Of a stretch of DNA of 64,000 bases, positions 8,867 to 62,042 are shown in pieces; the first letter of the stretch is position 1, and every line of letters begins with the position of its first letter. The stretch covers positions 65,527 to 129,526 of the forward strand of contig JAOAEV010000008.1 of the NCBI GenBank assembly GCA_026416585.1, written 5' to 3'. Below the pieces are notes generated by a model that searched no databases, was not told where the DNA came from, and saw nothing but the letters and a program-made list of their open reading frames with translations. Source of the DNA: Chlorobiota bacterium. Its GTDB lineage: Bacteria > Bacteroidota > Ignavibacteria > Kapaibacteriales > NICIL-2. The translations under genes were made by a program, and so were the position numbers.

Positions 8867-10366
8867 TTAAGTGTTACTCAGTGCAGACTTACGGAGCAAA
8901 CTTCGCTTTGCGCCGTAGCTGAAATAAATCGCAAGCCCCATTGCCATCCACACAACCAGTCGCAGCCATGTGTCCCACGGTAAACCGTACATCATGAACG
9001 CACACGTCACTACACCCATAATAGGAACAAATGGTACCCATGGAGTTCGGAATGCCCGTGACACATTCGGCTGAGTATAACGTAAAATGAGTACACCGAG
9101 ACTGACCAAGATAAACGCAAAGAGTGTTCCGATGCTGGTCATTTCGCCAACAATCGTAATGGGCAAAAAACCTGCTAATGCACCAACGAATACCGCAAAG
9201 AGCGCATTCGATTTCCACGGTGTACGGAATCGTGGATGAATGTCCGAGAACACTTTCGGAAGTAGCCCATCTTTCGAAATTGAGTAGAATACGCGCGATT
9301 GACCGAGGAGCATTACCAAAATCACCGACGTAAAACCCGCAAGAATTGCGATGATTATCGCCTGTTGTAGCCACAAATACGGGGTTTTCGCTATCGCCCG
9401 TGCAACAGGTGCCGCTTCGCCAACAAAGTTTTTGTAACTCTCCAACCCTGTCATCACATGAGCAAAAAGGACGTACAGCACTGTGCAAATTGCCAGCGAT
9501 CCTATAATCCCGATTGGCATATCTTTTTGCGGATTTCGGGCTTCCTGCGCTGCAGTCGAAACGGCATCAAAACCGATGAATGCAAAAAACACAATTGCCG
9601 CACCTGTCAATATCCCTGACCATCCGAATTGCCCAAATACCCCCGTATTCGGCGGAATGTACGGGACATAATTAGCTGGATCAATGTACTGCCATCCCAG
9701 CACAATGAATGTAACAACTACTCCTACCTTCAATGCAACGATAATTGCATTGAACGTTGCTGATTCTCGGGTACCACGCATCAGAAGCAGTGAGATAATC
9801 GCGATTACAAACAACGCCGGAAGGTTGACTACACCGTGGATGATAGTACCATCTGGCATGGTCTGATGCTCGAATGGCGACATCATCACTACAGCGGGCA
9901 GTTGCACACCGAAGCTATCGAGCAGCTTCGAAAAGTATCGGGACCAGCTCACGGCAACTGTGGCAGCCCCAACAGCATACTCAAGCACTAAATCCCAACC
10001 GATAATCCATGCCATCAGCTCGCCCATCGTGGCGTATGAGTACGTGTAGGCGCTTCCTGCAATCGGTATCATCGAAGCAAACTCAGCGTAGCATAATGCA
10101 GCAAAGGCGCAACCAATCCCTGCCAATACATACGACAGCGTCACTGCAGGACCTGCATGGTGTGCTGCAGCAATTCCTGTCAGCGAAAACAATCCTGCGC
10201 CAATTATCGCGCCGATTCCGAGTAACACCAAATTGAAAGCACCCAGCGTGCGCTTGAGAGTGTGTGCCTCACCAATTCCTGACGCTTCTTGTTGAAGCTG
10301 CTCAACAGACTTTTTGACAAAGAGGAGATTGGGCATAAAGCCTCCGCTCAACACATTGTGAAACAA
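8867..10366 (-). CDS. APC-family amino acid permease (cationic amino acid transporter-like)
   Basis: 499 aa, about 12-14 TM helices. It is a paralog of the adjacent permease. Confidence 0.8.
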   Translation of the reverse strand: MFHNVLSGGFMPNLLFVKKSVEQLQQEASGIGEAHTLKRTLGAFNLVLLGIGAIIGAGLFSLTGIAAAHHAGPAVTLSYVLAGIGCAFAALCYAEFASMIPIAGSAYTYSYATMGELMAWIIGWDLVLEYAVGAATVAVSWSRYFSKLLDSFGVQLPAVVMMSPFEHQTMPDGTIIHGVVNLPALFVIAIISLLLMRGTRESATFNAIIVALKVGVVVTFIVLGWQYIDPANYVPYIPPNTGVFGQFGWSGILTGAAIVFFAFIGFDAVSTAAQEARNPQKDMPIGIIGSLAICTVLYVLFAHVMTGLESYKNFVGEAAPVARAIAKTPYLWLQQAIIIAILAGFTSVILVMLLGQSRVFYSISKDGLLPKVFSDIHPRFRTPWKSNALFAVFVGALAGFLPITIVGEMTSIGTLFAFILVSLGVLILRYTQPNVSRAFRTPWVPFVPIMGVVTCAFMMYGLPWDTWLRLVVWMAMGLAIYFSYGAKRSLLRKSALSNT

Positions 10367-12883
10367 TCATCGTCGTTTAGTCGAGCTCTTACGGGTGCGT
10401 GGGGCAAGAGTCGCCTGTGCCAGACATTCTTCCAACGTTGCATGTTCATAGTCGAAACCGTCCGGCAGCCAGTATAAGCGCGAATCAACTTTTAGGTACG
10501 GTTTGGTTTTCCCTTGCATAATCATTGCATTGGGATTTTCCTCGAAGCGCCGAAGAATGCGCTGTTCTGTTTGTCTTTGTTTTGACGATAGCTCGCTGAG
10601 TGCTTCTTCGACTGTGATTGAATCGAGCCTGTCTTTTGGTATCGTCACAAACTTATCACCAATGCGGACATATGGTCCGTACCGACCGATCCCAACTGCC
10701 ACCTCACGCCCATCATCGGTGGTACCGATGGTACGCGGTTGATACATCCTATTATGCCGTTCGCCGCGCTCGTGTTCAGACTGCTGGAGCAGCTCGATTG
10801 CTTCTTCGAGTGTAAGGTAAAGCGGATCACGATCAGGCGGGATGTTGACAAATTGCCGATTTTGGTCGGCTCGCCATTCAATGTATGCTCCGCGTCCCAT
10901 CGCAATACTGACTGTTCCACCGTTATACTCACCGAGCACGCGAGGAAATTGTAGGTAATAGAGAGCCTGCTCAAGCGTGACGTGTTCGAGGAGAATATCC
11001 ACTGGTAGTGATGCAAAGCGATCACCCCGCTGCACATATGGCTGCTTGTTTCGGTTGATACCAACAAAAACATCTTCGCCTGTGCTGGGATCAGTTCCGA
11101 GGTGGCGACGTCCAACTTTTTGTGCCGATTCTCGAACATGTTCGACTTTGGCATGAAATGGCACGTAAAAACTCTCCAGCATACGTTGCCACTGTAGCTC
11201 TCCTCGCGCAATCTGGTCGAACTGCTCCTCAACCTGAGCGGTAAACTGATAATCCATCACGTCGGGAAAATGCTCCGCAAGAAAATCGGTCACAAATACA
11301 CCGACTTGCGTAGGGAAAAGCTTGTTGCGCTCACTGCCGACCGTTTCAGTCTCGGTTACTTGGCTGATGATACCGCCCTCGAGTCGAAGAATATGCACCG
11401 GTCGCTCGGTTCCGCTTTTGGTCCGTCGCTCGACGTAGTCACGCTCTTGGATACGTGCAACAATTGTCGCATACGTCGAAGGACGCCCAATGCCGAGCTC
11501 CTCGAGCTTGCGGACAAGTGTTGCTTCGTTGTACCGAGCTGGCGGTCGGGTAAAAGTTTGTCGCGCTGTGATGAGATCAGCAGATAGATCCTGCCCAACG
11601 CGAAGCAATGGTAGTAATGCAGATTCTGGATCCTCGCTCTCGGTATCATCATCACGCTCGATGGTATAGAGTCGCAAGAATCCATCGAAGGTAACCACTT
11701 CACCTTCGGCGATAAACCGCTGTTCGACGGTCGAGGGTGCAATAGTTGCTATCGTGCGCTCCAACTGAGCATCTTTCATTTGCGACGCCAGTGCTCGCTT
11801 CCAAATCAGCTCGTAGAGGCGTTGTGCCTGTTCGCCAAGCTCAGTGTTGTCAAGTGTCCGACGCGAAAAATCAGTGGGGCGGATTGCTTCGTGCGCTTCC
11901 TGTGCATTCGCAACTTTTGTTTGATACTGTCGGCGTTGATGATACTCTTGCCCATACAACTGGTTGATCACCGCAGCAGCAGCATCGAGCGCTTCTTCAC
12001 TGAGCGTGACTGAGTCGGTACGCATATACGTAATGTAACCCTGCTCGTATAATTGCTGCGCAAGCTGCATTGTTTTGGTGATTGATAGCCCCAGACGGCG
12101 TGCCGATTCTTGCTGCAATGTTGAGGTTGTAAATGGCGCCGGTGGTGATTTTTTGCCTGGCTTCGTTTCGAGAGCGTCAACGGTGTAGCGGGCACCAACA
12201 AGCCGCTCCAGCAACTGTTGAACATGGTCTGCAGCCGCTATGCGCTCGGAAAGCTCGGCTCGAACCAATTCGTCGCCATCGGTGCGAAAGCGCGCCTGAA
12301 CACGGTAGCTCGATTGCGGCACGAATGCCTCGATTTCCCGTTCACGCTCAACAATAAGTCGAACCGCGACCGACTGCACCCGTCCAGCCGAGAGTGCACC
12401 CTTGACCTTTCGCCACAGTAGTGGCGATAACTCATATCCAACCAGGCGATCAAGAATGCGGCGTGCTTGCTGCGCATTGACCAAGTGTTCGTTAATGCCC
12501 CGTGGGTTAGCAAGCGCACGTTCTATTGCCGAACGAGTGATCTCGTGAAAGACAATACGTCTGGTTTTCTGCGGATCAAGCCCAAGTGCCTCCGCTAAAT
12601 GCCATGCAATCGCTTCCCCTTCACGGTCTTCGTCCGTCGCGAGCAACACTGCCGGAGCATCAGATGCAAGCTTGCTAAGACGTTCGATGACTTTCTTCTT
12701 ACCTGGAATGAGGACATAGCGCGGCGTAAACCCATTCTGCACATCCACGGCGTTGTCGTCCTTTTCTGGCAGATCGCGAACGTGTCCCTGTGACGACTCG
12801 ACAACGAAGCGATCACCAAGGAATCGGGAGATTGTTCGCGCCTTGGTTGGTGATTCGACAATGAGCAAATCGCGTCCTGACAT
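10367..12883 (-). CDS. topA: DNA topoisomerase I
   Basis: 838 aa. TOPRIM N-terminus (LLIVESPTKA), active-site region, and C-terminal repeated topo-I DNA-binding repeats. Confidence 0.95.
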   Translation of the reverse strand: MSGRDLLIVESPTKARTISRFLGDRFVVESSQGHVRDLPEKDDNAVDVQNGFTPRYVLIPGKKKVIERLSKLASDAPAVLLATDEDREGEAIAWHLAEALGLDPQKTRRIVFHEITRSAIERALANPRGINEHLVNAQQARRILDRLVGYELSPLLWRKVKGALSAGRVQSVAVRLIVEREREIEAFVPQSSYRVQARFRTDGDELVRAELSERIAAADHVQQLLERLVGARYTVDALETKPGKKSPPAPFTTSTLQQESARRLGLSITKTMQLAQQLYEQGYITYMRTDSVTLSEEALDAAAAVINQLYGQEYHQRRQYQTKVANAQEAHEAIRPTDFSRRTLDNTELGEQAQRLYELIWKRALASQMKDAQLERTIATIAPSTVEQRFIAEGEVVTFDGFLRLYTIERDDDTESEDPESALLPLLRVGQDLSADLITARQTFTRPPARYNEATLVRKLEELGIGRPSTYATIVARIQERDYVERRTKSGTERPVHILRLEGGIISQVTETETVGSERNKLFPTQVGVFVTDFLAEHFPDVMDYQFTAQVEEQFDQIARGELQWQRMLESFYVPFHAKVEHVRESAQKVGRRHLGTDPSTGEDVFVGINRNKQPYVQRGDRFASLPVDILLEHVTLEQALYYLQFPRVLGEYNGGTVSIAMGRGAYIEWRADQNRQFVNIPPDRDPLYLTLEEAIELLQQSEHERGERHNRMYQPRTIGTTDDGREVAVGIGRYGPYVRIGDKFVTIPKDRLDSITVEEALSELSSKQRQTEQRILRRFEENPNAMIMQGKTKPYLKVDSRLYWLPDGFDYEHATLEECLAQATLAPRTRKSSTKRR

Positions 12884-46778: not shown

Positions 46779-48417
46779 CCGGATGCATCGCACTGAAAGG
46801 CGATTGATACGCACTGGCCGTCATGATTGGTTGCGAAAGTTCTGTTGGTGGTGATTGCCCCATCGCGTGATAGGCTTGAACGACGTGATAGCGAAACAAT
46901 TCATCGAAGACGTGCTGAAATGCACTGCGATGTTCGTCACCGAACCACCAAAACCAATCACTTCCTTCCGCGGTGAGCAGGTGACGGTATGCCAGTGCGT
47001 ATGCACTCGGATCGAGGAACCTTGCATGAGTATCCAGGAGAGTGCGAGCCTCACGTAATATCTCCCATGCTCGCCGATCATCAGGATGGCCAATCCAAAT
47101 TCGGAAACTCCCACCAATCCATGACCCTGCGACAATATGATCGAGAGTTGTCGTGGAGTGATCGGCAAGCGCTTGTTGGGCAACATCGCTGAAAGTGACC
47201 GTTTCGAACTCTTCGCTTTTGCTCAGCATGTCGTAGAGCGCACGGAGGAATGGCTCACCGTTGCGTTCGTAGTACTCCCAGCAGTTTTCTCCATCGAGGA
47301 TTACTGGGACAACTGCCGTCCGAAGGAAATCACGCCCGTGTTGTTGTATCAACGTTGTGCGGATACGGCGTAAGCGCTCTACAAAATCGGCAACCGCATC
47401 ACGCGCGTTCCACGTGCTGTACACGAAACCGATTGCGTCGCTCAATTCCGAATTGCGGAAGAGCACAGCAATTCGACGACCATTTCGCTTCCACACGAAT
47501 GGGCGGTAACATTGGTCTGACTCTCTGTCGCCAAGAGTACGCCGAAGAATTGCACAATCACTCGCTGTCCACTCGATACCACATTCGGCAAGAACATCGA
47601 GTGCATCATCGCTTATGCCGCCTTCGCTCAGCCACATTCCCCGTGGCGTAATTCTAAAGTATCGTTGCATTGCATCGAGCGCACGGCGCGTATGCTCGAC
47701 GGCATCACAGCGCCAAGAGAATGGCGGTTCAAGCGGCTCGATGTCCGAGTCGGATTGTTTTATTGCATCGCTCGAACAGACCAGCGGTAAAATTGGGTGA
47801 TAATACGGCGATGTCGCTAGTTCTGCACTCCCGCCACGTACCAGATTGCGTAACCGTTGGAATACCGCTACCAATAAGCACCGCTCGAGCGCAACAAGAC
47901 GCTCGCGATCATCGGAAGTAAAATCCCGTCCGCGTGCAAGCATGTTTTCCACCGACTGAATGCGTCGCGCTGTCTCGCCGAGCCATGTCAACCGCATCCA
48001 CACTTGCAAATCGCGCCATTCGGATTGCCCCCACGTTTTGTGCTTGTCATTAGCAGCATCATCACGTAGTTGCCGGTACCGAACATATGGATTGATCATG
48101 CGCTCGGCATTGCCTACAAATGCCCAACGCAGTAATCGCAGACGTTCATCATCGCCTGCTGTTGCTCTATCCATCGCAGAGAGAACGCCGCACTCATCCT
48201 CAATTCGACCATTACAGTAGTCATCAAGTTGTTCAGCAAGAATTGGCGTGACATTATACGTTAGCCGCAAGGTTGGGAAATCGCGGTGAATTGCAGGTAG
48301 CTCGGCATAATCCTTTGTTGCATGCAGACGAACCCATGGGAGGACGGCTTGGTTCCCAACACGATAATCAGGCTGGTGGAAGTGCCACAAAATTGCGACG
48401 CGCAGGCGGTGGTTCAT
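46744..48417 (-). CDS. glycoside hydrolase family 57 protein (alpha-amylase/branching-enzyme-like)
   Basis: 557 aa with the GH57 N-terminal signature (ILWHFHQPDYR) and conserved catalytic-region motifs. Confidence 0.75.
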   Translation of the reverse strand: MNHRLRVAILWHFHQPDYRVGNQAVLPWVRLHATKDYAELPAIHRDFPTLRLTYNVTPILAEQLDDYCNGRIEDECGVLSAMDRATAGDDERLRLLRWAFVGNAERMINPYVRYRQLRDDAANDKHKTWGQSEWRDLQVWMRLTWLGETARRIQSVENMLARGRDFTSDDRERLVALERCLLVAVFQRLRNLVRGGSAELATSPYYHPILPLVCSSDAIKQSDSDIEPLEPPFSWRCDAVEHTRRALDAMQRYFRITPRGMWLSEGGISDDALDVLAECGIEWTASDCAILRRTLGDRESDQCYRPFVWKRNGRRIAVLFRNSELSDAIGFVYSTWNARDAVADFVERLRRIRTTLIQQHGRDFLRTAVVPVILDGENCWEYYERNGEPFLRALYDMLSKSEEFETVTFSDVAQQALADHSTTTLDHIVAGSWIGGSFRIWIGHPDDRRAWEILREARTLLDTHARFLDPSAYALAYRHLLTAEGSDWFWWFGDEHRSAFQHVFDELFRYHVVQAYHAMGQSPPTELSQPIMTASAYQSPFSAMHPVSLPTQFQHGD

Positions 48418-50381
48418 TATCGTGTAACAGCAAGTGGCGTAACATAGAGCCGCCCACGAATGCGAGCACGTACATAGTACGTACCCGACGCCAATTGCTC
48501 TGTTGAAAATACCGAAATCTGCGATGGTGGGATGGTCGCCACCACGGCACCATGCACATCGTAAATGCGGATCGATTCGTCAGGCACCAGAGCCAGCACA
48601 ATCCAAACTGTGCTGGTGGCTGGGATCGGCCGAATATTGATTGCATCCTCATTATCGGTCAGCTCGACATTACTCACCATCGGCACCGATGCCAACGACA
48701 CAAGAGAACGCACCGAACGCCCAATATTCAGCGCGATCGACGTGAATGCACCGAGCGAATCGAACTCAATGGTCATCTCCTTTGCGGTGTTTATGACTGT
48801 GCGATGATTAGTATCGCTGCGCCCAATAAAACTCAACTCGAGCGGCAACGTGGTGTATACACCGAGAGAGTCCGCCTGAATTTGACGGATATGAACAGTA
48901 GCTTTCCATCCATGCTGGGATGGGGTACGGAGTGCTTCAATCGCCAGCACAGGCCATCCTTTCCCACGAATCCACTCATCGAAGAATCGCCGCACAAAAT
49001 CCTCGCGTCCACTCATTGCAGCAAGTGTGCGCACCAGTGTGTCAATCGTGACGTTGCCATAGCGGAACCGCTCCAATAGATGCCGACACCATACAAAAAA
49101 CACACTATCGCCGATAGCCCATCGGAGCATACCGAGTACTGCTGCACCCTTTTCATAAATCACGTGCGGATAATTCGACGACGGCGGGGTACGGTCAAAA
49201 TCATACATCGGCAGGATGCCTTCAAACATCGGGTTGCCAGGCTTGGCATATTGATTCAAGTAATTACTGATCTTGCGCTGCTGTTCGTTGAGATACGCAG
49301 CAAAGCCACTCAGTTGCTCGCGCCAGAGCGATTCACAGAACGTCGCAAAGCTTTCGTTGAACCACGCGTCCCGGAAATCCAACGGCGTAACGCAATCACC
49401 AAACCATTGATGCGCCAACTCATGCGCGGCGATCAAATTGATCGAGTCTGTCGTGCGAGCCAGTGAAGCTGGATATGAAATCATTGTCTGATGTTCCATT
49501 GCGCCCTTTTGCGTCATCACGTACCCGACCTTCTCGAACGGGTACTTCCCGAACCGAGCCTCGAAGGCACGCACCATCTGTGGGAGTAGCCGAAAGTTTC
49601 GAACAGTTGCAGTTGAATCAGTTCGGCGAGCATACACCACAATTGGTACATCAAGAGCTGAACGATCGTTGATGACACTCACTACAGATGCCGGTAGTGC
49701 CGCAAATGTCAGTAGATACGTCGCCGTTGGAATGTCTGAATGAAAACGATATATCCGCCATCCAAGGCTATCAATTGGGGGCAGCTCTATCCCTCCCGAT
49801 GCAACAACATACGACACCGGCACACGGAAAGCAAGAGAGAAACTGGCTTTGTCCGATGGATGATCGTAGCACGCGAGCCAATGTTGAGTAGCCGATACGT
49901 AATTATTGTAGAACCCTACACCGAGCGCGTACACGATGTTTCCCTCGCGCTGAACACCGCCCCATGAGTAGCCGCTATACGGTGGCTCGCCGGTCATCGT
50001 CCCTCGGTATGTAATGCGCAGCAGGACGGTATCGCCCACGTGGTGCGTCGGTAGTGCTGGTACGGCGTAGTGATATGTTGCATCGGTGGGTGTACCGCGA
50101 GCGAACCATTCGACAGGTATTGCCCTGCCAAACTGCACATACTCGACGCGAACAACCTCTAAACCGCGCAGATGGAAACGCAGCGTATCCGGTGCTCGAC
50201 GCCACCGAACACGCCAGCTACACATGCTTTCTCCAAGAACTGGTAGAGGAAGAGAGTCGAGCGCAATAAAAGCATCGTAGTGAAGCACATCGAACGACTG
50301 CTCGATAAACTGTGTCGGCGACGAAATCTCTTGTGCAAGCGCAAGCGTACCCGCAAAACACGCGATAATGGCAGCTTTCAT
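48417..50381 (-). CDS. pepN: M1-family aminopeptidase N with C-terminal T9SS sorting domain
   Basis: Start at MKAAIIACFAGTLALAQE (signal peptide). HEXXH-(18)-E zinc site (HELAHQWFGD...NESFAT). The C-terminal roughly 80 aa (SGTYYVRARI...) resemble the Por/T9SS C-terminal domain. Confidence 0.8.
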   Translation of the reverse strand: MKAAIIACFAGTLALAQEISSPTQFIEQSFDVLHYDAFIALDSLPLPVLGESMCSWRVRWRRAPDTLRFHLRGLEVVRVEYVQFGRAIPVEWFARGTPTDATYHYAVPALPTHHVGDTVLLRITYRGTMTGEPPYSGYSWGGVQREGNIVYALGVGFYNNYVSATQHWLACYDHPSDKASFSLAFRVPVSYVVASGGIELPPIDSLGWRIYRFHSDIPTATYLLTFAALPASVVSVINDRSALDVPIVVYARRTDSTATVRNFRLLPQMVRAFEARFGKYPFEKVGYVMTQKGAMEHQTMISYPASLARTTDSINLIAAHELAHQWFGDCVTPLDFRDAWFNESFATFCESLWREQLSGFAAYLNEQQRKISNYLNQYAKPGNPMFEGILPMYDFDRTPPSSNYPHVIYEKGAAVLGMLRWAIGDSVFFVWCRHLLERFRYGNVTIDTLVRTLAAMSGREDFVRRFFDEWIRGKGWPVLAIEALRTPSQHGWKATVHIRQIQADSLGVYTTLPLELSFIGRSDTNHRTVINTAKEMTIEFDSLGAFTSIALNIGRSVRSLVSLASVPMVSNVELTDNEDAINIRPIPATSTVWIVLALVPDESIRIYDVHGAVVATIPPSQISVFSTEQLASGTYYVRARIRGRLYVTPLAVTR

Positions 50382-51130
50382 CGTTTCAGTGGTAAGGGAA
50401 CATATGATACCCACTGTGCAAAATACTGCATCCAGTAGCGGCGACATACGATACCATCAAATGCAAGCAAAAGACCCCCGATTAGTGTGGCGACCTCAAT
50501 CCCACTACGCCATGCGATCACAGTGAAAAATGCAATGATCGCCACACCAACTATGTGTGAGGCTGCATGATTGGAGCCATACGGATTCAATGGTACAGCC
50601 GCAAGAAAACTGACACCCAACCAACCGATGAAATTCAACAGCGGCACTCCATAATAGATGCCGTTTTGTTCCCAAACCCACAACCGCATCGGTCCGATCG
50701 CGACAGGATCGATGAGCAAATCAAACATCGTCATGGCGAGCGCGATAATGACCCGTGCACGCCAAGCGTGTTGCGTGATTGTCATCGCCAGCGTCCATGC
50801 ATATGAAAGTAGTACCAGCCATGCTGCAACCATGACAATGGGGACCCCTGCAATCGCTGGTCCCAGCGTTTCGGTGTAGTGATAGCGCCCAAACGGAATA
50901 CCGATAGCTACCCCGACGATTTCACTGATGAGACCGATAGCCGCACCAAGAGCAAGCCGTGCTCCAAGCGGATGTTGATACACCACAATCACCGCCGCTG
51001 CAACCCAGAGAAACAGCATTTCTCCATAGCGTCGGAGTACGGCAAGGTCACTATCGGCAGCAGTGGTAAGACTACCGCCAATCAGAAGAACAGCAAATAG
51101 TGTAGCAAGTATTCTACGAATCCATTTCAT
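50378..51130 (-). CDS. cruF: carotenoid 1,2-hydratase CruF-family membrane protein (Pfam 'carotenoid biosynthesis protein')
   Basis: 250 aa with 6-7 TM helices, the GIPFGRYHYT and DLLIDPVA motifs that I recall as characteristic of the CruF/Caroten_synth family, and a location inside a crt cluster. Confidence 0.6.
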   Translation of the reverse strand: MKWIRRILATLFAVLLIGGSLTTAADSDLAVLRRYGEMLFLWVAAAVIVVYQHPLGARLALGAAIGLISEIVGVAIGIPFGRYHYTETLGPAIAGVPIVMVAAWLVLLSYAWTLAMTITQHAWRARVIIALAMTMFDLLIDPVAIGPMRLWVWEQNGIYYGVPLLNFIGWLGVSFLAAVPLNPYGSNHAASHIVGVAIIAFFTVIAWRSGIEVATLIGGLLLAFDGIVCRRYWMQYFAQWVSYVPLPLKR

Positions 51131-52589
51131 GTCGCTTGATCAGATCAAAAACCAACTTCGACGAAAGCACGACCATCGGCGTACCTCCACCTGGGTGTGT
51201 ACTGCCGCCAACATAGTAAAGCCCACGCACGTTCCGATCCCGCAGCGGATGTCGGAGAAATGCTGTTCGGTACGAGTGCGAAGCAAAGCCGTAGATGGAA
51301 CCTCCGGGCATTCCATATGTGCGTTCAAAGTGTTCTGGTGTCCACACCGAGCGGACAGCGATATCACTTTCGACAATGTGAATACCAGAGCGCTCCAATA
51401 CGCGCATCATCCGTTCCCAAAGCATCGGTATTGCGTGCTCCCACTGACGCCCCTCAACCGCAGGAGCATTTGCCATCACAAACAGTGTCTCGCCACTTGG
51501 CGGTGCAGTCGTTGAGTCGGTTTTACTGGTGACGTTGAGATAGACTGTTGGTTCGCTTGGGAACTCCATGCGGTCGAATAGTTCAACAAATTCGCGCCGA
51601 TAGTCCGTCGAAAATGCAATGGTGTGATGGAACACATCTGCAGGCAATTGCCGACGCAAGCCAATCAAGAACACGACGCCCGACATTGAGCGCTCAGGAA
51701 GTCGTGGTGGCGGCGGCATACCAAGTAACGTGTGTGCTCGTGTCGCATCACCGTTGAATGCTACAACGTCAGCTTCCACGACGTCCCCACTTGCAAGACA
51801 AACGCCACGAACTCGGCGGTTTCTCTCGATAATCGAGACGACATCTGCATTCGTTGCAATCATCACACCACGCTCGCGTAGCGCTCCAAGGATCGTCTCG
51901 ATAATGCGATAAAGTCCGCCGTCAACATACCAACCACCGTGGGCAAATTCAAGATATGGAATAACAAGAAGTGTTGCTGGCGAGCGATACGGTGATGAGC
52001 CGACAAAGGTCGGGTAGCGATTGAAAATCTGCCGGATGTACGAACTATGAATATGCCGTTCAACTGTGCGTGAGTAGTTTCCCCACGCATTGCGCAGCGG
52101 GAACCATCGGAGAGACCTCACAAGTGCTTGTAGCTGCCGCGATGTTGGCAATTCGAACGGGCTACTCTGAAAAAACGTACGTTGGGACAGCTCGAAGAGC
52201 TTTGCTGCTGTTGCCATCAAACGCCAGTAGCCACGACCACCGTCTGGTTCGAGTCGCTCCAACATCGAGGCAATTGCTGGGAGTTTGTCAGGATAGGTAA
52301 TGCGTTCGCCATCAGGAAAACGATACTGTGTCAGCGGCTGCAAACGCCGAAAACGTAAACTACCGGTGCCTACACCACACTCTTCGAACATCTGTCGGAA
52401 CACGTGCGGCAGCGTGATCAATGATGGTCCGGTATCAAAGCGGTAACCGTCTTGTGCGAGAATATTCATTTTTCCACCGGCCTGGTGACTGCGTTCGAGA
52501 ACAGTTACCTGCCACCCGGCGCTGACTGCTCGCAACGCAAGTGATAATCCGCCGAGTCCGGCACCAACGACGATCAATCGTTTTTTCAT
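51114..52589 (-). CDS. CrtI-family carotenoid desaturase/oxygenase (CrtD 3,4-desaturase- or CrtO ketolase-like)
   Basis: Start at MKKRLIVVGAGLGGLS (FAD Rossmann). Phytoene-desaturase family length and C-terminal motif (GGSTHPGGG). Subfamily assignment would need phylogeny. Confidence 0.75.
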   Translation of the reverse strand: MKKRLIVVGAGLGGLSLALRAVSAGWQVTVLERSHQAGGKMNILAQDGYRFDTGPSLITLPHVFRQMFEECGVGTGSLRFRRLQPLTQYRFPDGERITYPDKLPAIASMLERLEPDGGRGYWRLMATAAKLFELSQRTFFQSSPFELPTSRQLQALVRSLRWFPLRNAWGNYSRTVERHIHSSYIRQIFNRYPTFVGSSPYRSPATLLVIPYLEFAHGGWYVDGGLYRIIETILGALRERGVMIATNADVVSIIERNRRVRGVCLASGDVVEADVVAFNGDATRAHTLLGMPPPPRLPERSMSGVVFLIGLRRQLPADVFHHTIAFSTDYRREFVELFDRMEFPSEPTVYLNVTSKTDSTTAPPSGETLFVMANAPAVEGRQWEHAIPMLWERMMRVLERSGIHIVESDIAVRSVWTPEHFERTYGMPGGSIYGFASHSYRTAFLRHPLRDRNVRGLYYVGGSTHPGGGTPMVVLSSKLVFDLIKRHEMDS

Positions 52590-53701
52590 TCCATCACCTG
52601 CTTGGGTCGAATAACACGATAGCGACGATCTTTCCACTCGACGCCACGGCTACTACGCCACCACGACACCACCGCAAGAGCAAGCAGAACGACCTCCGCT
52701 ATGGGGTGCCATAGAATGCTCCAGAGCTTGTGACCAAATCGCAGTGCCAGTACCAGGCGCGATGCCCCAACCGCACACGCTGCAATCAACAACGGTAATG
52801 TCGGTGTGAAGAGAACCGCCATAAATGGTACTGTGAAGACTGCACCGTGAAGTGCAAGCACTACCGGGAAAAGCCACCGTCGCCGAAATCCTGGATAAAA
52901 GTTTTTCTGAAAGCCGCGCCAAATCTCCCCGAAAGTCTGATACATCCGCACATGTACAATCTCTTGCCCATCGCAACACAACGATTTCTCGCCGGATTGC
53001 CTCCAATGCCGCGCCAGAGCCGTGTCTTCGAAAAGCTCTGTACGAACAGCAGAGTGCCCGCCCAGACGGAAATATGTTTGCCGATCGCATAACATGCACG
53101 AGCCATGCGCTAATGCATAGCGCGGGTGATTCGACAGTTGTTGTAGGGGTGAAGGCAGGAGCGTCATTACGTAAAAATCTAACATCGGCATGAGCACACG
53201 CTCAACCGGGGACACCATCTCAATCTTGGGCCATGCCGATAGCAGTGTTGCGTTACATGCACGCGCAGTTGCGATCAACCGCTCGACACTACCGGGGTTT
53301 AGTTGTGCATCCGCATCGAGAAAGAGAAGCCACTGACTCTGTGCCGCTGATGCCAAGCGATAACATGCGTGTGGTTTACCGTACCATCCGTTGGGCAGCG
53401 GTACTGTCTCCAGCACACGAACACGTTGGTCTCGTTGACTCCACGTTTGGGCTACGTAGTGGGTCGTGTCAGTGGACTGGTCATCGTAGATAAGCACTTC
53501 TGCAACGACGTCACCGCAGGCAAGGACACTTTCGATACAACGGCCAAGCACCCCCTCTTCATTCCGCGCTGGAATAAGAACACTGATGTACGTGTCCAGT
53601 ACGCCCACTGGAGAACGTGTACGCAAGAATGCAATCGCATTGATCGTAGCCAGCACGAAAAATGACAATGCTACCACTGCGATAAACCACTCCCCCATCA
53701 C
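52586..53701 (-). CDS. family-2 glycosyltransferase, carotenoid glycosyltransferase CruC/CruG-like
   Basis: 371 aa. N-terminal TM helix, GT2 catalytic region (VLIPARNEE...DDQSTD...DADAQ), several C-terminal TM helices, embedded in the crt cluster. Confidence 0.65.
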   Translation of the reverse strand: MMGEWFIAVVALSFFVLATINAIAFLRTRSPVGVLDTYISVLIPARNEEGVLGRCIESVLACGDVVAEVLIYDDQSTDTTHYVAQTWSQRDQRVRVLETVPLPNGWYGKPHACYRLASAAQSQWLLFLDADAQLNPGSVERLIATARACNATLLSAWPKIEMVSPVERVLMPMLDFYVMTLLPSPLQQLSNHPRYALAHGSCMLCDRQTYFRLGGHSAVRTELFEDTALARHWRQSGEKSLCCDGQEIVHVRMYQTFGEIWRGFQKNFYPGFRRRWLFPVVLALHGAVFTVPFMAVLFTPTLPLLIAACAVGASRLVLALRFGHKLWSILWHPIAEVVLLALAVVSWWRSSRGVEWKDRRYRVIRPKQVME

Positions 53702-54429
53702 TCATCGAATATGATCGATGCAACTTTTTCGGGTGCTTCGTCCAACAGCAAGTGACCTGCGTTTTCGATGGGATGATCGCTCAAAGCACGCAGATAGCGT
53801 CGCCAGATCGGTATGGAGCGACGTACTGCCGCAAATGTTCGCTCTCCCCACACTATTGCAACGGGTTGAATGATCGAAGCATATCGCTGGGGTCCTGGCA
53901 ATTGTGCCAACGCTTTTAGATAGGCACGAGTCACTGCCGCCTGCTTATCAGCGAATGATGCCATCATGTCTGTATCGGCACGGCGCCGAGAACGCAGTGC
54001 TATGTTGACCAGCTTGCGACCAAGTGCTGTTTGGAATGTCATACGATATGCAATTGCTCCGACCGGTTCGCTAACGAAGAAGCGGAAATACCACGGCATG
54101 AACGCGAACAAGTCCAGCGCTATGATTCGGCGTATCCGCTGCGGTATGCGTAATGCCGTCTCCAGCGCAATGACAGCTCCACTGCACGAGCCAATCACAA
54201 TGACTGGCGCAGGAAGCGATTCGATCATGGTAGCAACCAATTCCGCAGTGCGATCGATCCGAAGTGGTTCGATAAGTGGTGTGGCACCATAGCCCGGTAA
54301 ATTTGCTGCGATAAGTCGCCAACGTGGAGGCAATAGTGGCACCAGCGGCGCGAACGTACGATGATCGCCACCCCATCCATGCAGCCCAACGATAATATGA
54401 TCTCCACTACCGTACTCGACTGTGTTCAT
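53698..54429 (-). CDS. alpha/beta-hydrolase fold protein inside carotenoid cluster
   Basis: Start chosen at MNTVEYGSGDHIIVGLHGWGGDH. The full-length ORF would overlap crtI by 358 bp. HGWGG oxyanion motif and the nucleophile elbow GSCSG. Confidence 0.6.
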   Translation of the reverse strand: MNTVEYGSGDHIIVGLHGWGGDHRTFAPLVPLLPPRWRLIAANLPGYGATPLIEPLRIDRTAELVATMIESLPAPVIVIGSCSGAVIALETALRIPQRIRRIIALDLFAFMPWYFRFFVSEPVGAIAYRMTFQTALGRKLVNIALRSRRRADTDMMASFADKQAAVTRAYLKALAQLPGPQRYASIIQPVAIVWGERTFAAVRRSIPIWRRYLRALSDHPIENAGHLLLDEAPEKVASIIFDE

Positions 54430-55885
54430 CGCTAACGATACGTTGTGCAACCATCGCGCCACTGAGCACAACCATTGGCAGCCCTGTTCCGGGTGTTGTG
54501 CTCGCGCCAGCATAGTAGAGCCGTGCAACTCTGCGATCTCGATTCGATGGGCGGAACGGCCCGATGTTCCAGAGGTTGTGAGCAAGCCCGAATGCCGAAC
54601 CATCATAAAGTCCAAAGCGCTGCCGCCACTCGTGTGGTGCCCAGACATGCTCGACAACAATATCTTGTGGCGAGATCGCGATGCCGTGCATATCAAGTCG
54701 CTGCAGAACTTCCTGGCGCGATCGCTCGATTGCAGCATCCCAATCGAACGCAGGACCAGCAGCACTCAAGGTCGGAGCAGGCACTAACACAAATACCGTA
54801 CTGCAACCTGCGGGAGCAACACTCGGATCACTTCGAGAGGGTACACAGATGTAAAATGGTAAATCGTCTGGCAATCGGCGGCGCAATTGTGCATACGCTG
54901 TGCGTGGATCGCTCGGCAGAAAAATGCAATGATGGTGTGCTGTGTCTATATTTCGCCGCACGCCCCAATAGAACGTGATGACACCTGGTGTCATGGTCCA
55001 CTGCTGTCGATGGGGTACAGCACCAACAATCATTGTCTGTGTTGTTGGTACATCGACGTTCGACACAACCGCATCAGCCGCGACAATAGTGCCATCCTCA
55101 AGTTCAACACTTCGTGCACGATTGGACTCAATGCGGATTGCACGAACCGGACTATTGCAGAATATTCGAACTCCAATTTCGACTGCACGGCGACGTATTG
55201 CTTCCACCAGAGCATAAATCCCCCCGCGCGGATACCACAGGCCATAGTAGAGCTCACCAAACGGCAAGATGCTGAACGTGCCCGGCAGCTTGTACGGAGA
55301 ACCACCTAAGTACATCGCGTACGAGCCCAGTGCTGCTCGCACTGATTCAGAGCGGAAAAAGCGTGCAAGCTCACGATCGAGTGACCGAAACATGCCCAGC
55401 CTCATCAATCCTTGCTTGGGAACCGGGGCTATCCACTTCCCAATAGTTTCCGCATTCGAGAGCACCAAATAATCGAACAAGAATCGAAAACGCTCTTGAT
55501 TTGCCGATAGAAACGCCGAGAGTTTTGCGTGTGCTGCATCGTCGAACTGCGATAACTGCTCGGCAAGATACTGGAAATCAGAACTCAGTTGTAACTGATT
55601 TCCATTCCGCCAGAAAAAGGTCACCGAAGGATCGAGCGGAAGTAGCTCTACATAGTCGTCCATGCAAGCGCCAGTTACTGCAAAAAGTTGTTCGAACACC
55701 CATGGATAGTTGATAAGCGATGGTCCTGTATCAAAACGAAATCCATTCGTTTCGATGCGATTTGCACGCCCACCGACAAGCGGATTTTGCTCGTACACTT
55801 CTACATCATACCCCATCGTGCACAGGTGAATTGCAGCACTCAACCCTCCTAAGCCAGCACCAATGATCACCACTCGCTGACTCAT
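54407..55885 (-). CDS. crtI: phytoene desaturase (CrtI family)
   Basis: Start at MSQRVVIIGAGLGGLSAA. CrtI-family motifs throughout, C-terminal GASTTPGTG, and a location immediately downstream of crtB. Confidence 0.8.
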   Translation of the reverse strand: MSQRVVIIGAGLGGLSAAIHLCTMGYDVEVYEQNPLVGGRANRIETNGFRFDTGPSLINYPWVFEQLFAVTGACMDDYVELLPLDPSVTFFWRNGNQLQLSSDFQYLAEQLSQFDDAAHAKLSAFLSANQERFRFLFDYLVLSNAETIGKWIAPVPKQGLMRLGMFRSLDRELARFFRSESVRAALGSYAMYLGGSPYKLPGTFSILPFGELYYGLWYPRGGIYALVEAIRRRAVEIGVRIFCNSPVRAIRIESNRARSVELEDGTIVAADAVVSNVDVPTTQTMIVGAVPHRQQWTMTPGVITFYWGVRRNIDTAHHHCIFLPSDPRTAYAQLRRRLPDDLPFYICVPSRSDPSVAPAGCSTVFVLVPAPTLSAAGPAFDWDAAIERSRQEVLQRLDMHGIAISPQDIVVEHVWAPHEWRQRFGLYDGSAFGLAHNLWNIGPFRPSNRDRRVARLYYAGASTTPGTGLPMVVLSGAMVAQRIVSDEHSRVR

Positions 55886-56922
55886 TTGCCATACTCCGGG
55901 GTTAGAAATGCAAGTGGAAGCACCCAATATTTTGACGTTGGCAGGCAAGCGAGTTTGCGATGCCAAGAAACGCTTGCGCGACGCTGTGGGTTACAAGCAC
56001 GTTCTAACATCGTTGTAAGCTCACCATACACCGCTATGCAGGACGAAATCGCAGGAATGCATGAAGGATCGAATGCATCAAGCAACCGCTCTGCATGATG
56101 GTAATGTCGCCACGCAGCTTCCGCGTAACGTCGGATAACGTATTCGGTTGCTTTAGGCTCAGTGCCGGCGATAAAATCTTCAACAGTTGTCCCAGCTTGA
56201 CGTAACAGTTCCTGTGGAACGTAACATCGGCGTCGGTGGTGATCTTCTCGTACATCGCGCAAAAAGTTAGTCAATTGCAGTGCAATTCCGAGTGCTCGAG
56301 CGGACTCTAATGCCTCTTCGATAGAGCGCCCGGGAGCAGCACCATAAACGTAGGTCAGGAAGTAACCAACAACGATCGCGCTGCCATAGATATACCGATC
56401 GATCAAGTCCTCAAAGATTTCAAATGGTTCTGGAGCAATATCAAATTCCATCGCATCAAGAAATGCATGATAGTACTCTGATGGAATTCCATGACGTCGT
56501 ACCAGCTCAGCAAAACCAGCAACAATAGGGTTACAGCCATTGTCGAGACTCTCCCGCAGTGATGGCCGCTGCAGCGCAATAACGTATTGCTCGCGCCATT
56601 GGCACAGAAGACGTCTTTTCTCGTCGGCAGCAAGTGGGAAACTATCTACAACTTCGTCAGGATAACGCACTGCAGCGTAGATGATTTCGACGTCGCGTCG
56701 TTTGTTGCGTGGCAAAAAGCGGGTGACGGTAAAAAAGCTCGTGCTATAGTGACGCAGAACACGCCATGATGCATCTGCAACGATACGGCGTGCATGCTCG
56801 TCGGTGGAAGCTTGACGTGCACGCTGTTCCACGTCAGCAAAAAAGCGAGTCCACTGATTGTACGACCAATGATTCATTCCGCGCTGCATTGAGCCACCTC
56901 GGCTATAAAACCGAGCAGGCAA
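55882..56922 (-). CDS. crtB: phytoene synthase
   Basis: Squalene/phytoene synthase family with Asp-rich motifs (YxxxRxPDExVD, DVREDhhrrRCYVP). The start could be one of the internal Mets at 56892 or 56880. Confidence 0.85.
   Translation of the reverse strand: MPARFYSRGGSMQRGMNHWSYNQWTRFFADVEQRARQASTDEHARRIVADASWRVLRHYSTSFFTVTRFLPRNKRRDVEIIYAAVRYPDEVVDSFPLAADEKRRLLCQWREQYVIALQRPSLRESLDNGCNPIVAGFAELVRRHGIPSEYYHAFLDAMEFDIAPEPFEIFEDLIDRYIYGSAIVVGYFLTYVYGAAPGRSIEEALESARALGIALQLTNFLRDVREDHHRRRCYVPQELLRQAGTTVEDFIAGTEPKATEYVIRRYAEAAWRHYHHAERLLDAFDPSCIPAISSCIAVYGELTTMLERACNPQRRASVSWHRKLACLPTSKYWVLPLAFLTPEYGK

Positions 56923-56949: not shown

Positions 56950-62042
<5,093 letters not shown>

Follow-up and report, generated by a model that had tools for sequence, protein, structure and literature searches.

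Why should an alpha/beta-hydrolase (ABH) be encoded in the middle of a set of carotenoid biosynthesis genes, next to the phytoene desaturase gene crtI on one side and to a glycosyltransferase gene on the other? The question is raised by a 64-kb stretch of DNA from a Chlorobiota bacterium (contig JAOAEV010000008.1), referred to below as 'the window', whose numbering is used for coordinates; the carotenoid cassette lies on its minus strand. An earlier reading of the sequence, called here the original prediction, had proposed that this ABH could be a novel acyltransferase or esterase acting on a carotenoid glycoside. We conclude that the ABH is likely a dedicated enzyme of the carotenoid pathway specified by the cassette, and that it represents a new ABH subfamily, specific to this context, which has an unusual catalytic triad and probably a new role in the pathway, which is not to say a new principle. 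As for the reaction, esterification of the carotenoid glycoside by acyl transfer through an acyl-S-Cys intermediate is our tentative first choice, to which we would give somewhat less than an even chance.

The dedicated role is argued first from genomic context. The window proteins were compared by tblastn with 80 genome loci, to which six look-ups were added; counts of upstream neighbours refer to the 75 loci with enough upstream DNA, and counts of downstream neighbours to the 59 loci whose downstream sequence spans 6 kb or more. The ABH gene lay inside a carotenoid (crt) cluster in about 72 of the 80 loci. The end of a CrtI gene was found at most 300 bp upstream of it in 69 of 75 loci, at distances from -19 nucleotides (nt) up, mostly -19 to +26 nt, and the two genes often overlapped by 1 to 19 nt; in 66 of the 80 loci, crtI was in turn preceded by a conserved crtB. 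On the other side, the family 2 glycosyltransferase (GT2) gene was present in 52 of 59 loci and cruF in 48 of 59. ABH identity tracks CrtI identity (r = 0.65). The association also holds in the other direction: look-ups seeded with the GT2, and picked without reference to the ABH, gave the cassette with the ABH gene after crtI in three cases out of three. The original prediction was to be given up if homologues were never linked to carotenoid genes elsewhere; the linkage just described is the reverse of this.

The position between crtI and the glycosyltransferase gene, as originally described, is that of the Kapabacteria-type locus. In Acidobacteria and most other lineages, a further gene separates ABH and GT2. 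In Acidobacteria, an acyltransferase of the LPLAT type was expected at this place; the gene proved to be a polyprenyl synthetase, crtE. Since crtE lies between ABH and GT2 in most lineages, the general cassette has seven genes, in the order crtB-crtI-ABH-crtE-GT2-crtD-cruF. Exactly this array is kept by the most divergent family members (P0080 and P0061, 37-38% identity).

In the window, whose closest relatives are Kapabacteria metagenome-assembled genomes (MAGs), six closely packed genes span positions 50378-56922 of the minus strand. In the order of transcription, they are:

55882-56922, minus strand: crtB, phytoene/squalene-synthase family, first gene of the cassette (PF00494 SQS_PSY, E = 6.4e-57)
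54407-55966, minus strand: crtI, phytoene desaturase family (TIGR02734 crtI_fam, 398.7 bits, cut-off 238)
53698-54429, minus strand: the ABH, 243 amino acids (aa), matched over its full length by Abhydrolase_6 and Abhydrolase_1
52586-53701, minus strand: GT2 glycosyltransferase, CruC/CruG-like and membrane-anchored (PF00535, E = 3.3e-23)
51114-52637, minus strand: crtD-like 1-hydroxycarotenoid 3,4-desaturase (crtI_fam, 331 bits)
50378-51130, minus strand: cruF, carotenoid 1,2-hydratase (PF04240 Caroten_synth, E = 2e-29; CruF models below their cut-offs)

The true start of crtI is likely the ATG at 55885, which would create an ATGA overlap with the crtB stop codon (55882-55885), because of the dinucleotide-binding motif MSQRVVIIGAGLGG and of the 4-nt crtB/crtI overlap in L084, the syntenic locus of Chlorobi bacterium NICIL-2, where the spacing between cassette genes is as in the window. 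The crtI stop codon is at 54407-54409. The coupling of ABH to GT2 that had been pointed out earlier is real, in the form either of GTGA (GTG at 53701 over TGA at 53700-53698) or of TGATG (ATG at 53698, as in the NCBI model of the GT2, of 370 aa). Similarly, the crtD-like gene likely starts at the ATG at 52589, in ATGA overlap with the GT2 stop codon (52586-52589), and crtD and cruF overlap by 17 nt. With homology-supported starts, every junction of the cassette is thus of the ATGA type or a short overlap. For the GT2, the top NCBIfam match was the CruG model, at 138 bits below its cut-off of 600, and homologues bear the JGI name 'chlorobactene glucosyltransferase', that is, CruC; the best specific matches of the crtD-like gene were CrtD models, both under their cut-offs (295 and 286 bits). 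As a separate observation, the window crtB was matched best in NCBIfam by HpnD (presqualene diphosphate synthase), with 135 bits; the CrtB models followed at about 106 bits, and none of these matches reached its cut-off. The presumed C40 assignment of this gene rests on the proximity of crtE in relatives.

The ABH gene itself had been described as having an uncertain start codon, with an overlap with crtI of up to 358 bp. This was not borne out. The minus-strand open reading frame (ORF) terminates at 53698 and, with the ATG at 54429 as its start, encodes 243 aa. Aligned with it, 32 homologues have their N-termini at MNTVEYGSG, give or take a residue or two, and the NCBI protein model (P0001) also has 243 aa, with 100% coverage; the start is therefore placed at 54429, with a 23-nt overlap with crtI, and on this alignment we consider it settled. 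The longer ORF of 355 aa, which begins at the GTG at 54765, is an alternative frame of the crtI 3' end. Its 358-nt overlap with crtI could suggest an artefact, that is, a chance ORF or a decaying pseudogene. Such an explanation is next to impossible, and we rejected it: the protein matches PF12697 Abhydrolase_6 (69.6 bits, cut-off 26.3, E = 7.8e-19, residues 13-238) and PF00561 Abhydrolase_1 (59.3 bits, cut-off 25.8, E = 6.1e-16), full-length matches that come with the aligned N-termini, a confident AF2 structure model, catalytic residues invariant in 78 homologues and a position kept across phyla, and the true overlap is 23 nt only.

What the cassette would make can be read from its other members. 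CrtE, CrtB and CrtI would build lycopene, CruF would hydrate it at C-1,2, CrtD would desaturate it at C-3,4 and the CruC-like GT2 would glycosylate it, the predicted product being an acyclic, 1-hydroxylated, 3,4-desaturated carotenoid glycoside. The ABH gene is the only one in the cassette without an assigned step, and there is no acyltransferase gene alongside. In Chlorobaculum tepidum and Staphylococcus aureus, the sugar of the carotenoid is esterified by an LPLAT-type enzyme or by CrtO. For producers of carotenoid glycoside esters such as I. album and R. marinus (CruD) and M. xanthus (Orf9), the enzymes known or predicted to act are of the LPLAT type (PMC3362086, PMC7414004, PMC8156234, PMC9304148). 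Among the conserved neighbours of the ABH gene in the 80 loci, no LPLAT or other acyltransferase family was found, and a regular expression for the PlsC motif had no match in the window or in the 3,618 ORFs of these loci, a search blind to enzymes of the HtrB type and to genes in other parts of the genome. It is because of these three elements (cassette linkage, no conserved LPLAT neighbour, and LPLAT-type enzymes in the producers studied) that an acyltransferase or esterase acting on the glycoside leads the hypotheses.

The catalytic apparatus was then considered. The protein has the canonical beta-sheet core of the ABH superfamily, a helical cap, the nucleophile elbow after strand beta5 and a His after the last strand. 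Residue conservation was assessed over 78 family members drawn from the 80 loci, and the key positions are:

54367-54381, minus strand: HGWGG oxyanion-hole loop, residues 17-21; H17, G18, W19 and G21 invariant (78 of 78)
54178-54192, minus strand: nucleophile elbow G80-S-C82-S-G84; Cys82 codon TGC at 54184-54186, Cys in 78 of 78
54112-54114, minus strand: Asp106, proposed triad acid just after strand beta6; D in 76 and E in 2 of 78
53983-54018, minus strand: cap-domain segment R138-R149 with two conserved arginines; R138 in 78 and R149 in 74 of 78
53752-53754, minus strand: His226, triad His in a GAGHL motif, invariant (78 of 78)

The HGWGG motif that had been announced is present. The GSCSG elbow is present as well, but its nucleophile is Cys82 and not Ser, which had gone unremarked. 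The elbow consensus is G-[SN]-C-[SG]-G, and both HMMER and hhalign place Cys82 on the catalytic Ser of PlaF (GNSMGG) and of BioH (GWSLGG). The Cys is retained in some 95 more distant representatives; Ser returns only among the lowest-ranked sequences, which are generic ABHs. The canonical acid site after strand beta7 (D207 in BioH) aligns with T198, a position occupied by Thr or Ser in all sequences, and the adjacent E196 is Ala in 19 of them. From these alignments, we infer that the family has a Cys82-His226-Asp/Glu106 triad with a relocated acid, the geometry of which is a prediction.

An acyl transfer mechanism can be proposed on this basis. The ABH would be a soluble, cap-bearing core component of a mobile carotenoid cassette, in which the Cys82-His226-Asp106 triad would operate with the HGWGG loop as oxyanion hole. 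A fatty acyl group would be loaded on Cys82 as a thioester and passed to a sugar hydroxyl, yielding a carotenoid glycoside ester as the last tailoring step. ABHs that transfer an acyl group instead of hydrolysing it are known. PhaC is a Cys-nucleophile ABH that forms an acyl-S-Cys intermediate and transfers the acyl group to a hydroxyl, and the thioesterase of Pks13 and antigen 85 are ABH-fold enzymes that acylate a sugar, trehalose, via an acyl-enzyme. By analogy, a Cys nucleophile would suit thioester-to-thioester exchange followed by transfer to a hydroxyl. As for the donor, acyl-ACP (ACP, acyl carrier protein) is plausible because conserved cap arginines of the ABH align with ACP-binding arginines of BioH; acyl-coenzyme A or a phospholipid would be alternatives. 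In BioH, the cap arginines form salt bridges with helix alpha2 of the ACP (PMC6733898). HMMER and hhalign agree in placing R138 on BioH R142; R149 falls on R155 with HMMER and on R159 with hhalign. The ABH would then be a non-homologous functional replacement of LPLAT-type CruD and Orf9 and of staphylococcal CrtO.

An alternative is a true hydrolase. As an esterase, lipase or thioesterase, the ABH would deacylate or remodel glycoside esters or lipids, or it would split an acyl thioester and in this way supply or edit the acyl group for an LPLAT encoded elsewhere. Its closest neighbours in sequence and structure are indeed hydrolases: BioH, PlaF, esterases, MenH and RsbQ. A sequence search of the PDB returned remote ABHs only, the best being PlaF (6i8w, E = 8.6e-17) and BioH. 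The structure search that had been suggested as a way of telling an acyltransferase-like from an esterase-like active site did recover the ABH fold, but it did not separate the two kinds of enzyme. The third and last Pfam match of the protein, besides the two Abhydrolase models, is PF00975 Thioesterase (31.7 bits, cut-off 26.4), which covers only profile positions 3-100 of 226, within the N-terminal 96 residues. Dienelactone hydrolase (DLH) and the intracellular polyhydroxybutyrate depolymerase PhaZa1 are Cys-triad ABHs that act as plain hydrolases and provide precedents, and cassette linkage and the Thioesterase match speak for a hydrolase as much as for a transferase. On the other hand, one would not expect a purely degradative enzyme in a translationally coupled biosynthetic operon, the neighbourhood has no conserved partner acyltransferase, and the esterase equivalogs of NCBIfam all score far below their cut-offs. 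We consider a true hydrolase unlikely.

How does the ABH compare with characterized enzymes? The genes of CruD and Orf9 lie in carotenoid clusters, next to those of a glycosyltransferase of the CruC/GT2 type and of a 1,2-hydratase (PMC3362086, PMC7414004, PMC8156234). The ABH shares this setting, which is a likeness of context and not of homology, and the role proposed for it, by analogy, is theirs: esterification of the sugar of a carotenoid glycoside. However, CruD and Orf9 belong to the 1-acyl-glycerol-3-phosphate or lipid A type of acyltransferase and form no covalent intermediate, whereas the ABH has another fold and a Cys nucleophile, and lacks a PlsC or lipid A acyltransferase domain (HX4D). 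In a Myxococcota locus (L064, crtY-crtE-crtI-ABH-carH), the ABH gene stands directly before a CarH-like gene and holds the position of orf9 in the M. xanthus carB operon (PMC8156234). Orf9 was for this reason suspected to be an ABH homologue; it is annotated as an acyltransferase (PMC9304148 Table S2), and the idea was dropped.

BioH is the best NCBIfam match. Like the ABH, it is a cap-bearing enzyme with an HGWG loop and a nucleophile at residue 82, and of the four cap arginines by which it binds ACP, two correspond in the alignments to R138 and R149. The match to TIGR01738 nevertheless reaches 55.7 bits for a cut-off of 206.95, on residues 8-105 only and at about 20% identity; the BioH triad is Ser82-His235-Asp207, compared to Cys82-His226-Asp106 with Thr198 at the D207 site; and the genes surrounding the ABH are carotenoid genes, not biotin genes. 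With PhaC, PhaZa1 and DLH, the ABH shares the elbow Cys (G-x-C-x-G). It differs from them in the placement of the acid residue, in substrates and in context; no PhaC or DLH model was among its Pfam and NCBIfam matches at E <= 0.01, and PhaC, with about 560-590 aa and a PhaC N-terminal domain, is more than twice as long as the 243-aa ABH. The Pks13 thioesterase and antigen 85 resemble the ABH by their fold, and by its partial PF00975 match, but they have a Ser nucleophile, belong to the mycolic acid pathway and show no specific sequence relationship to it. Finally, BchO is an ABH of purple-bacterial photosynthesis clusters, found beside crtI and crtB in Rhodobacter and associated with Mg-chelatase genes. 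Its model gives a weak N-terminal match (TIGR03056, 41 bits, cut-off 172.55), and it is not an orthologue of the cassette ABH. Judged from sequence, the ABH is outside the BioH, BchO, PhaC and DLH families and outside the LPLAT and CrtO families of carotenoid acyltransferases; its function may be that of CruD, Orf9 or CrtO, without any relationship to these enzymes.

Several observations weigh against acyl transfer onto the glycoside. The arginine match depends on distant alignments (about 20% identity), and HMMER and hhalign differ in their placement of R149. An LPLAT could be encoded elsewhere in the carrier genomes. The carriers are mostly uncultured, and their pigment, esters included, is a prediction from genes. 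Above all, the constant neighbours of the ABH gene are crtI and crtE, and not the GT2 gene. GT2-crtD-cruF behaves as a separable module, which is found upstream of crtB in two loci (L052 and L079), and five loci (L009, L021, L034, L041 and L065) are without GT2, crtD and cruF within 10 kb on either side. In these five, the order is CarH, then SDR-SRPBCC-photolyase-crtB-crtI-ABH-crtE (SDR, short-chain dehydrogenase/reductase). They form one Blastocatellia-like clade, with CrtI proteins 83-90% identical, in which the ABH is conserved at an identity of 0.76, compared to 0.78 in GT2-containing pairs of equal CrtI divergence. This clade could reflect a single relocation of the tailoring module, or an ABH that is independent of the glycoside. 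Four of the 80 loci (L008, L029, L055 and L078) have no crt neighbour at all.

These points lend some weight to the idea that the ABH serves the backbone module (CrtB, CrtI and CrtE), either by new chemistry on lycopene or its precursors or as a partner in CrtI assembly or channelling, the glycoside being irrelevant. The constancy and frequent overlap of crtI upstream, the presence of crtE next to the ABH gene in most loci, the intact crtB-crtI-ABH order where the tailoring module has moved or is absent within 10 kb, and the unrelaxed constraint on the ABH in the GT2-less loci would all fit, as would L064, where the ABH occurs with a CrtI of another subfamily and with a lycopene cyclase. The location of BchO, another ABH, beside crtI in Rhodobacter photosynthesis clusters would fit as well. 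It is, however, well established that heterologous hosts make lycopene with just CrtE, CrtB and CrtI, and we know of no missing step in this route. It is hard to see what a Cys/His/Asp machinery working through an acyl-enzyme would act upon in a hydrocarbon polyene, BchO resembles the ABH only weakly, and the GT2-less loci amount to one rearrangement in a single clade, whose tailoring module may lie elsewhere in the genomes. Service to the backbone module is rather improbable in our view. The specific proposal that the ABH is an obligate partner of CrtI, its invariant Cys carrying out new chemistry on the polyene or prenyl precursors (through a covalent or thiol-assisted intermediate, or by channelling), would explain both the tie to crtI and crtE and the full constraint in the GT2-less clade; we hold it to be distinctly improbable.

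The GT2-less loci have a composition of their own. A divergent CarH-type regulator, with MerR and two B12-binding domains, precedes the genes (positions 3420-7403 in L009, and likewise in L021, L034, L041 and L065), and the operon also holds an Epimerase+DUF1731 SDR, a 170-aa SRPBCC-like protein without Pfam match and a DNA photolyase. It looks like a B12- and light-controlled photoprotection operon.

Could the ABH then belong to a regulon for light or oxidative stress and merely ride in the operon, for example as a lipid-repair esterase without direct action on carotenoids? All-against-all clustering of the 3,618 ORFs from the 80 loci revealed no further conserved neighbour family beyond the cassette genes. 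The next commonest families, in about 12-21 loci each, were a CarH-type MerR/B12 regulator, photolyase, the Epimerase+DUF1731 SDR, and SRPBCC-like, AhpC/TSA-like and isopentenyl diphosphate isomerase-like proteins. Many loci are headed by the regulator and contain photolyase, SDR and SRPBCC genes in the operon; in L055, one of the four loci without crt neighbours, the ABH gene comes after the Epimerase+DUF1731 SDR gene. Yet the position after crtI is kept across several phyla, including Kapabacteria loci that have neither CarH nor photolyase, and the family is essentially confined to crt cassettes. A catalytic Cys would also seem a poor choice under photo-oxidative stress. Membership of such a regulon is highly improbable.

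Taking both sides together, the original proposal of a novel acyltransferase or esterase acting on the glycoside keeps its place as the leading hypothesis, through cassette linkage and through the lack of a conserved LPLAT neighbour in the loci compared; the Cys nucleophile, the constancy of crtI and crtE as partners and the GT2-less clade weaken or modify it.

We then delineated the family. A word-indexed search of 5.8 billion proteins yielded 84 ABH clusters at E <= 1e-34, followed by a gap until E > 1e-6, and an exhaustive profile search of 1.84 billion representatives yielded 117 at E <= 1e-30. A relative was encoded in 206 of 185,579 species genomes, and there was no homologue among 72,556 plasmids. 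Nearly all carriers are MAGs, of Kapabacteria/Chlorobiota and of Acidobacteriota (Blastocatellia, Pyrinomonadaceae, Bryobacteraceae), with a few labelled Myxococcota, Verrucomicrobiota, Gemmatimonadota and others. The family is small, sharply bounded and distinct. Homologues bear the JGI name 'pimeloyl-ACP methyl ester carboxylesterase', the BioH function; it is unsupported, because all NCBIfam matches of the ABH, BioH included, are far under their cut-offs. Seven contigs (L009, L016, L021, L025, L026, L056 and L071) are titled 'uncultured Heliomicrobium sp.', 'Heliobacteriaceae' or 'Clostridia'; their cassettes are 40-50% identical to, and collinear with, those of Blastocatellia and Pyrinomonadaceae, and the labels look unreliable.

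A sister subfamily of Cys-nucleophile ABHs was also encountered, with the elbow GFCMGG and about 25-30% identity. One member (L087, 6316-10783) is encoded just downstream of genes for a monogalactosyldiacylglycerol-synthase-like GT28, a PF03279 lipid A-type acyltransferase, a GT2 and a hypothetical protein; those in L088 and L089 have unrelated, uninformative neighbours. Annotation transfer from this subfamily was dropped, the contexts of the three loci being inconsistent.

Some additional genes were noticed around the cassettes. Two Blastocatellia loci have an extra ORF of about 260 aa between crtE and GT2 (L028, 9054-9836; L043, about 10250-11041), with a borderline DUF3291 match (23.4 bits, cut-off 23.5); it may be an additional carotenoid-tailoring enzyme, conceivably a CrtA-like oxygenase. 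A TspO/MBR (CrtK-like) gene comes straight after cruF in an Acidobacteria-type cassette (L086, 13406-13933), as in purple-bacterial crt clusters. In 12 loci, a gene just downstream of crtE or cruF encodes an AhpC/TSA-like, redoxin-like lipoprotein; the one in L034 (11656-12216) is without an obvious CxxC motif by eye. In the window, cruF is followed by a gene for an M1-family peptidase with a type IX secretion system C-terminal sorting domain (48417-50447, minus strand). Its likely start, MKAAIIACFAG at an ATG near 50381, would give an ATGA overlap with the cruF stop codon. The gene is syntenic in all Kapabacteria-type loci (L001-L004, L006, L007 and L084), and it may be co-transcribed with the carotenoid genes, an odd operon partner. 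At the other end, 27 nt upstream of crtB, lie genes for a 1007-aa amidohydrolase and the NAD-dependent DNA ligase ligA (56950-62039, minus strand), in an order identical to that of NICIL-2; given this short gap and conserved order, the Kapabacteria carotenoid genes may have no promoter of their own.

In a full-text search of the literature, no paper was found that describes an ABH encoded in bacterial carotenoid clusters. Fatty-acid esters of carotenoid glycosides occur widely as membrane pigments, in Chlorobi, Rhodothermus, Thermus, myxobacteria and staphylococci, and every acyltransferase that has been assigned or proposed for them to date is of the LPLAT or CrtO type. If the acyltransferase reading is true, the ABH would be a third and mechanistically different solution, with a covalent acyl-S-enzyme; if instead it works with CrtI, there would be an unrecognised step in a pathway considered complete. 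An annotation would also be gained, if the acyltransferase reading holds, for a gene now labelled 'alpha/beta hydrolase' or, wrongly, 'pimeloyl-ACP methyl ester carboxylesterase', and the relocated-acid Cys82/His226/Asp106 arrangement, if correctly predicted, would offer a clean case for the study of the switch between hydrolysis and transfer in ABHs. The ABH family is a fixed part of a portable seven-gene cassette, and its carriers number over 200 species, from Kapabacteria, Acidobacteriota, Myxococcota and other phyla. The cassette is compact and needs only common precursors, which makes its product, and the part played by the ABH, directly testable by heterologous expression.

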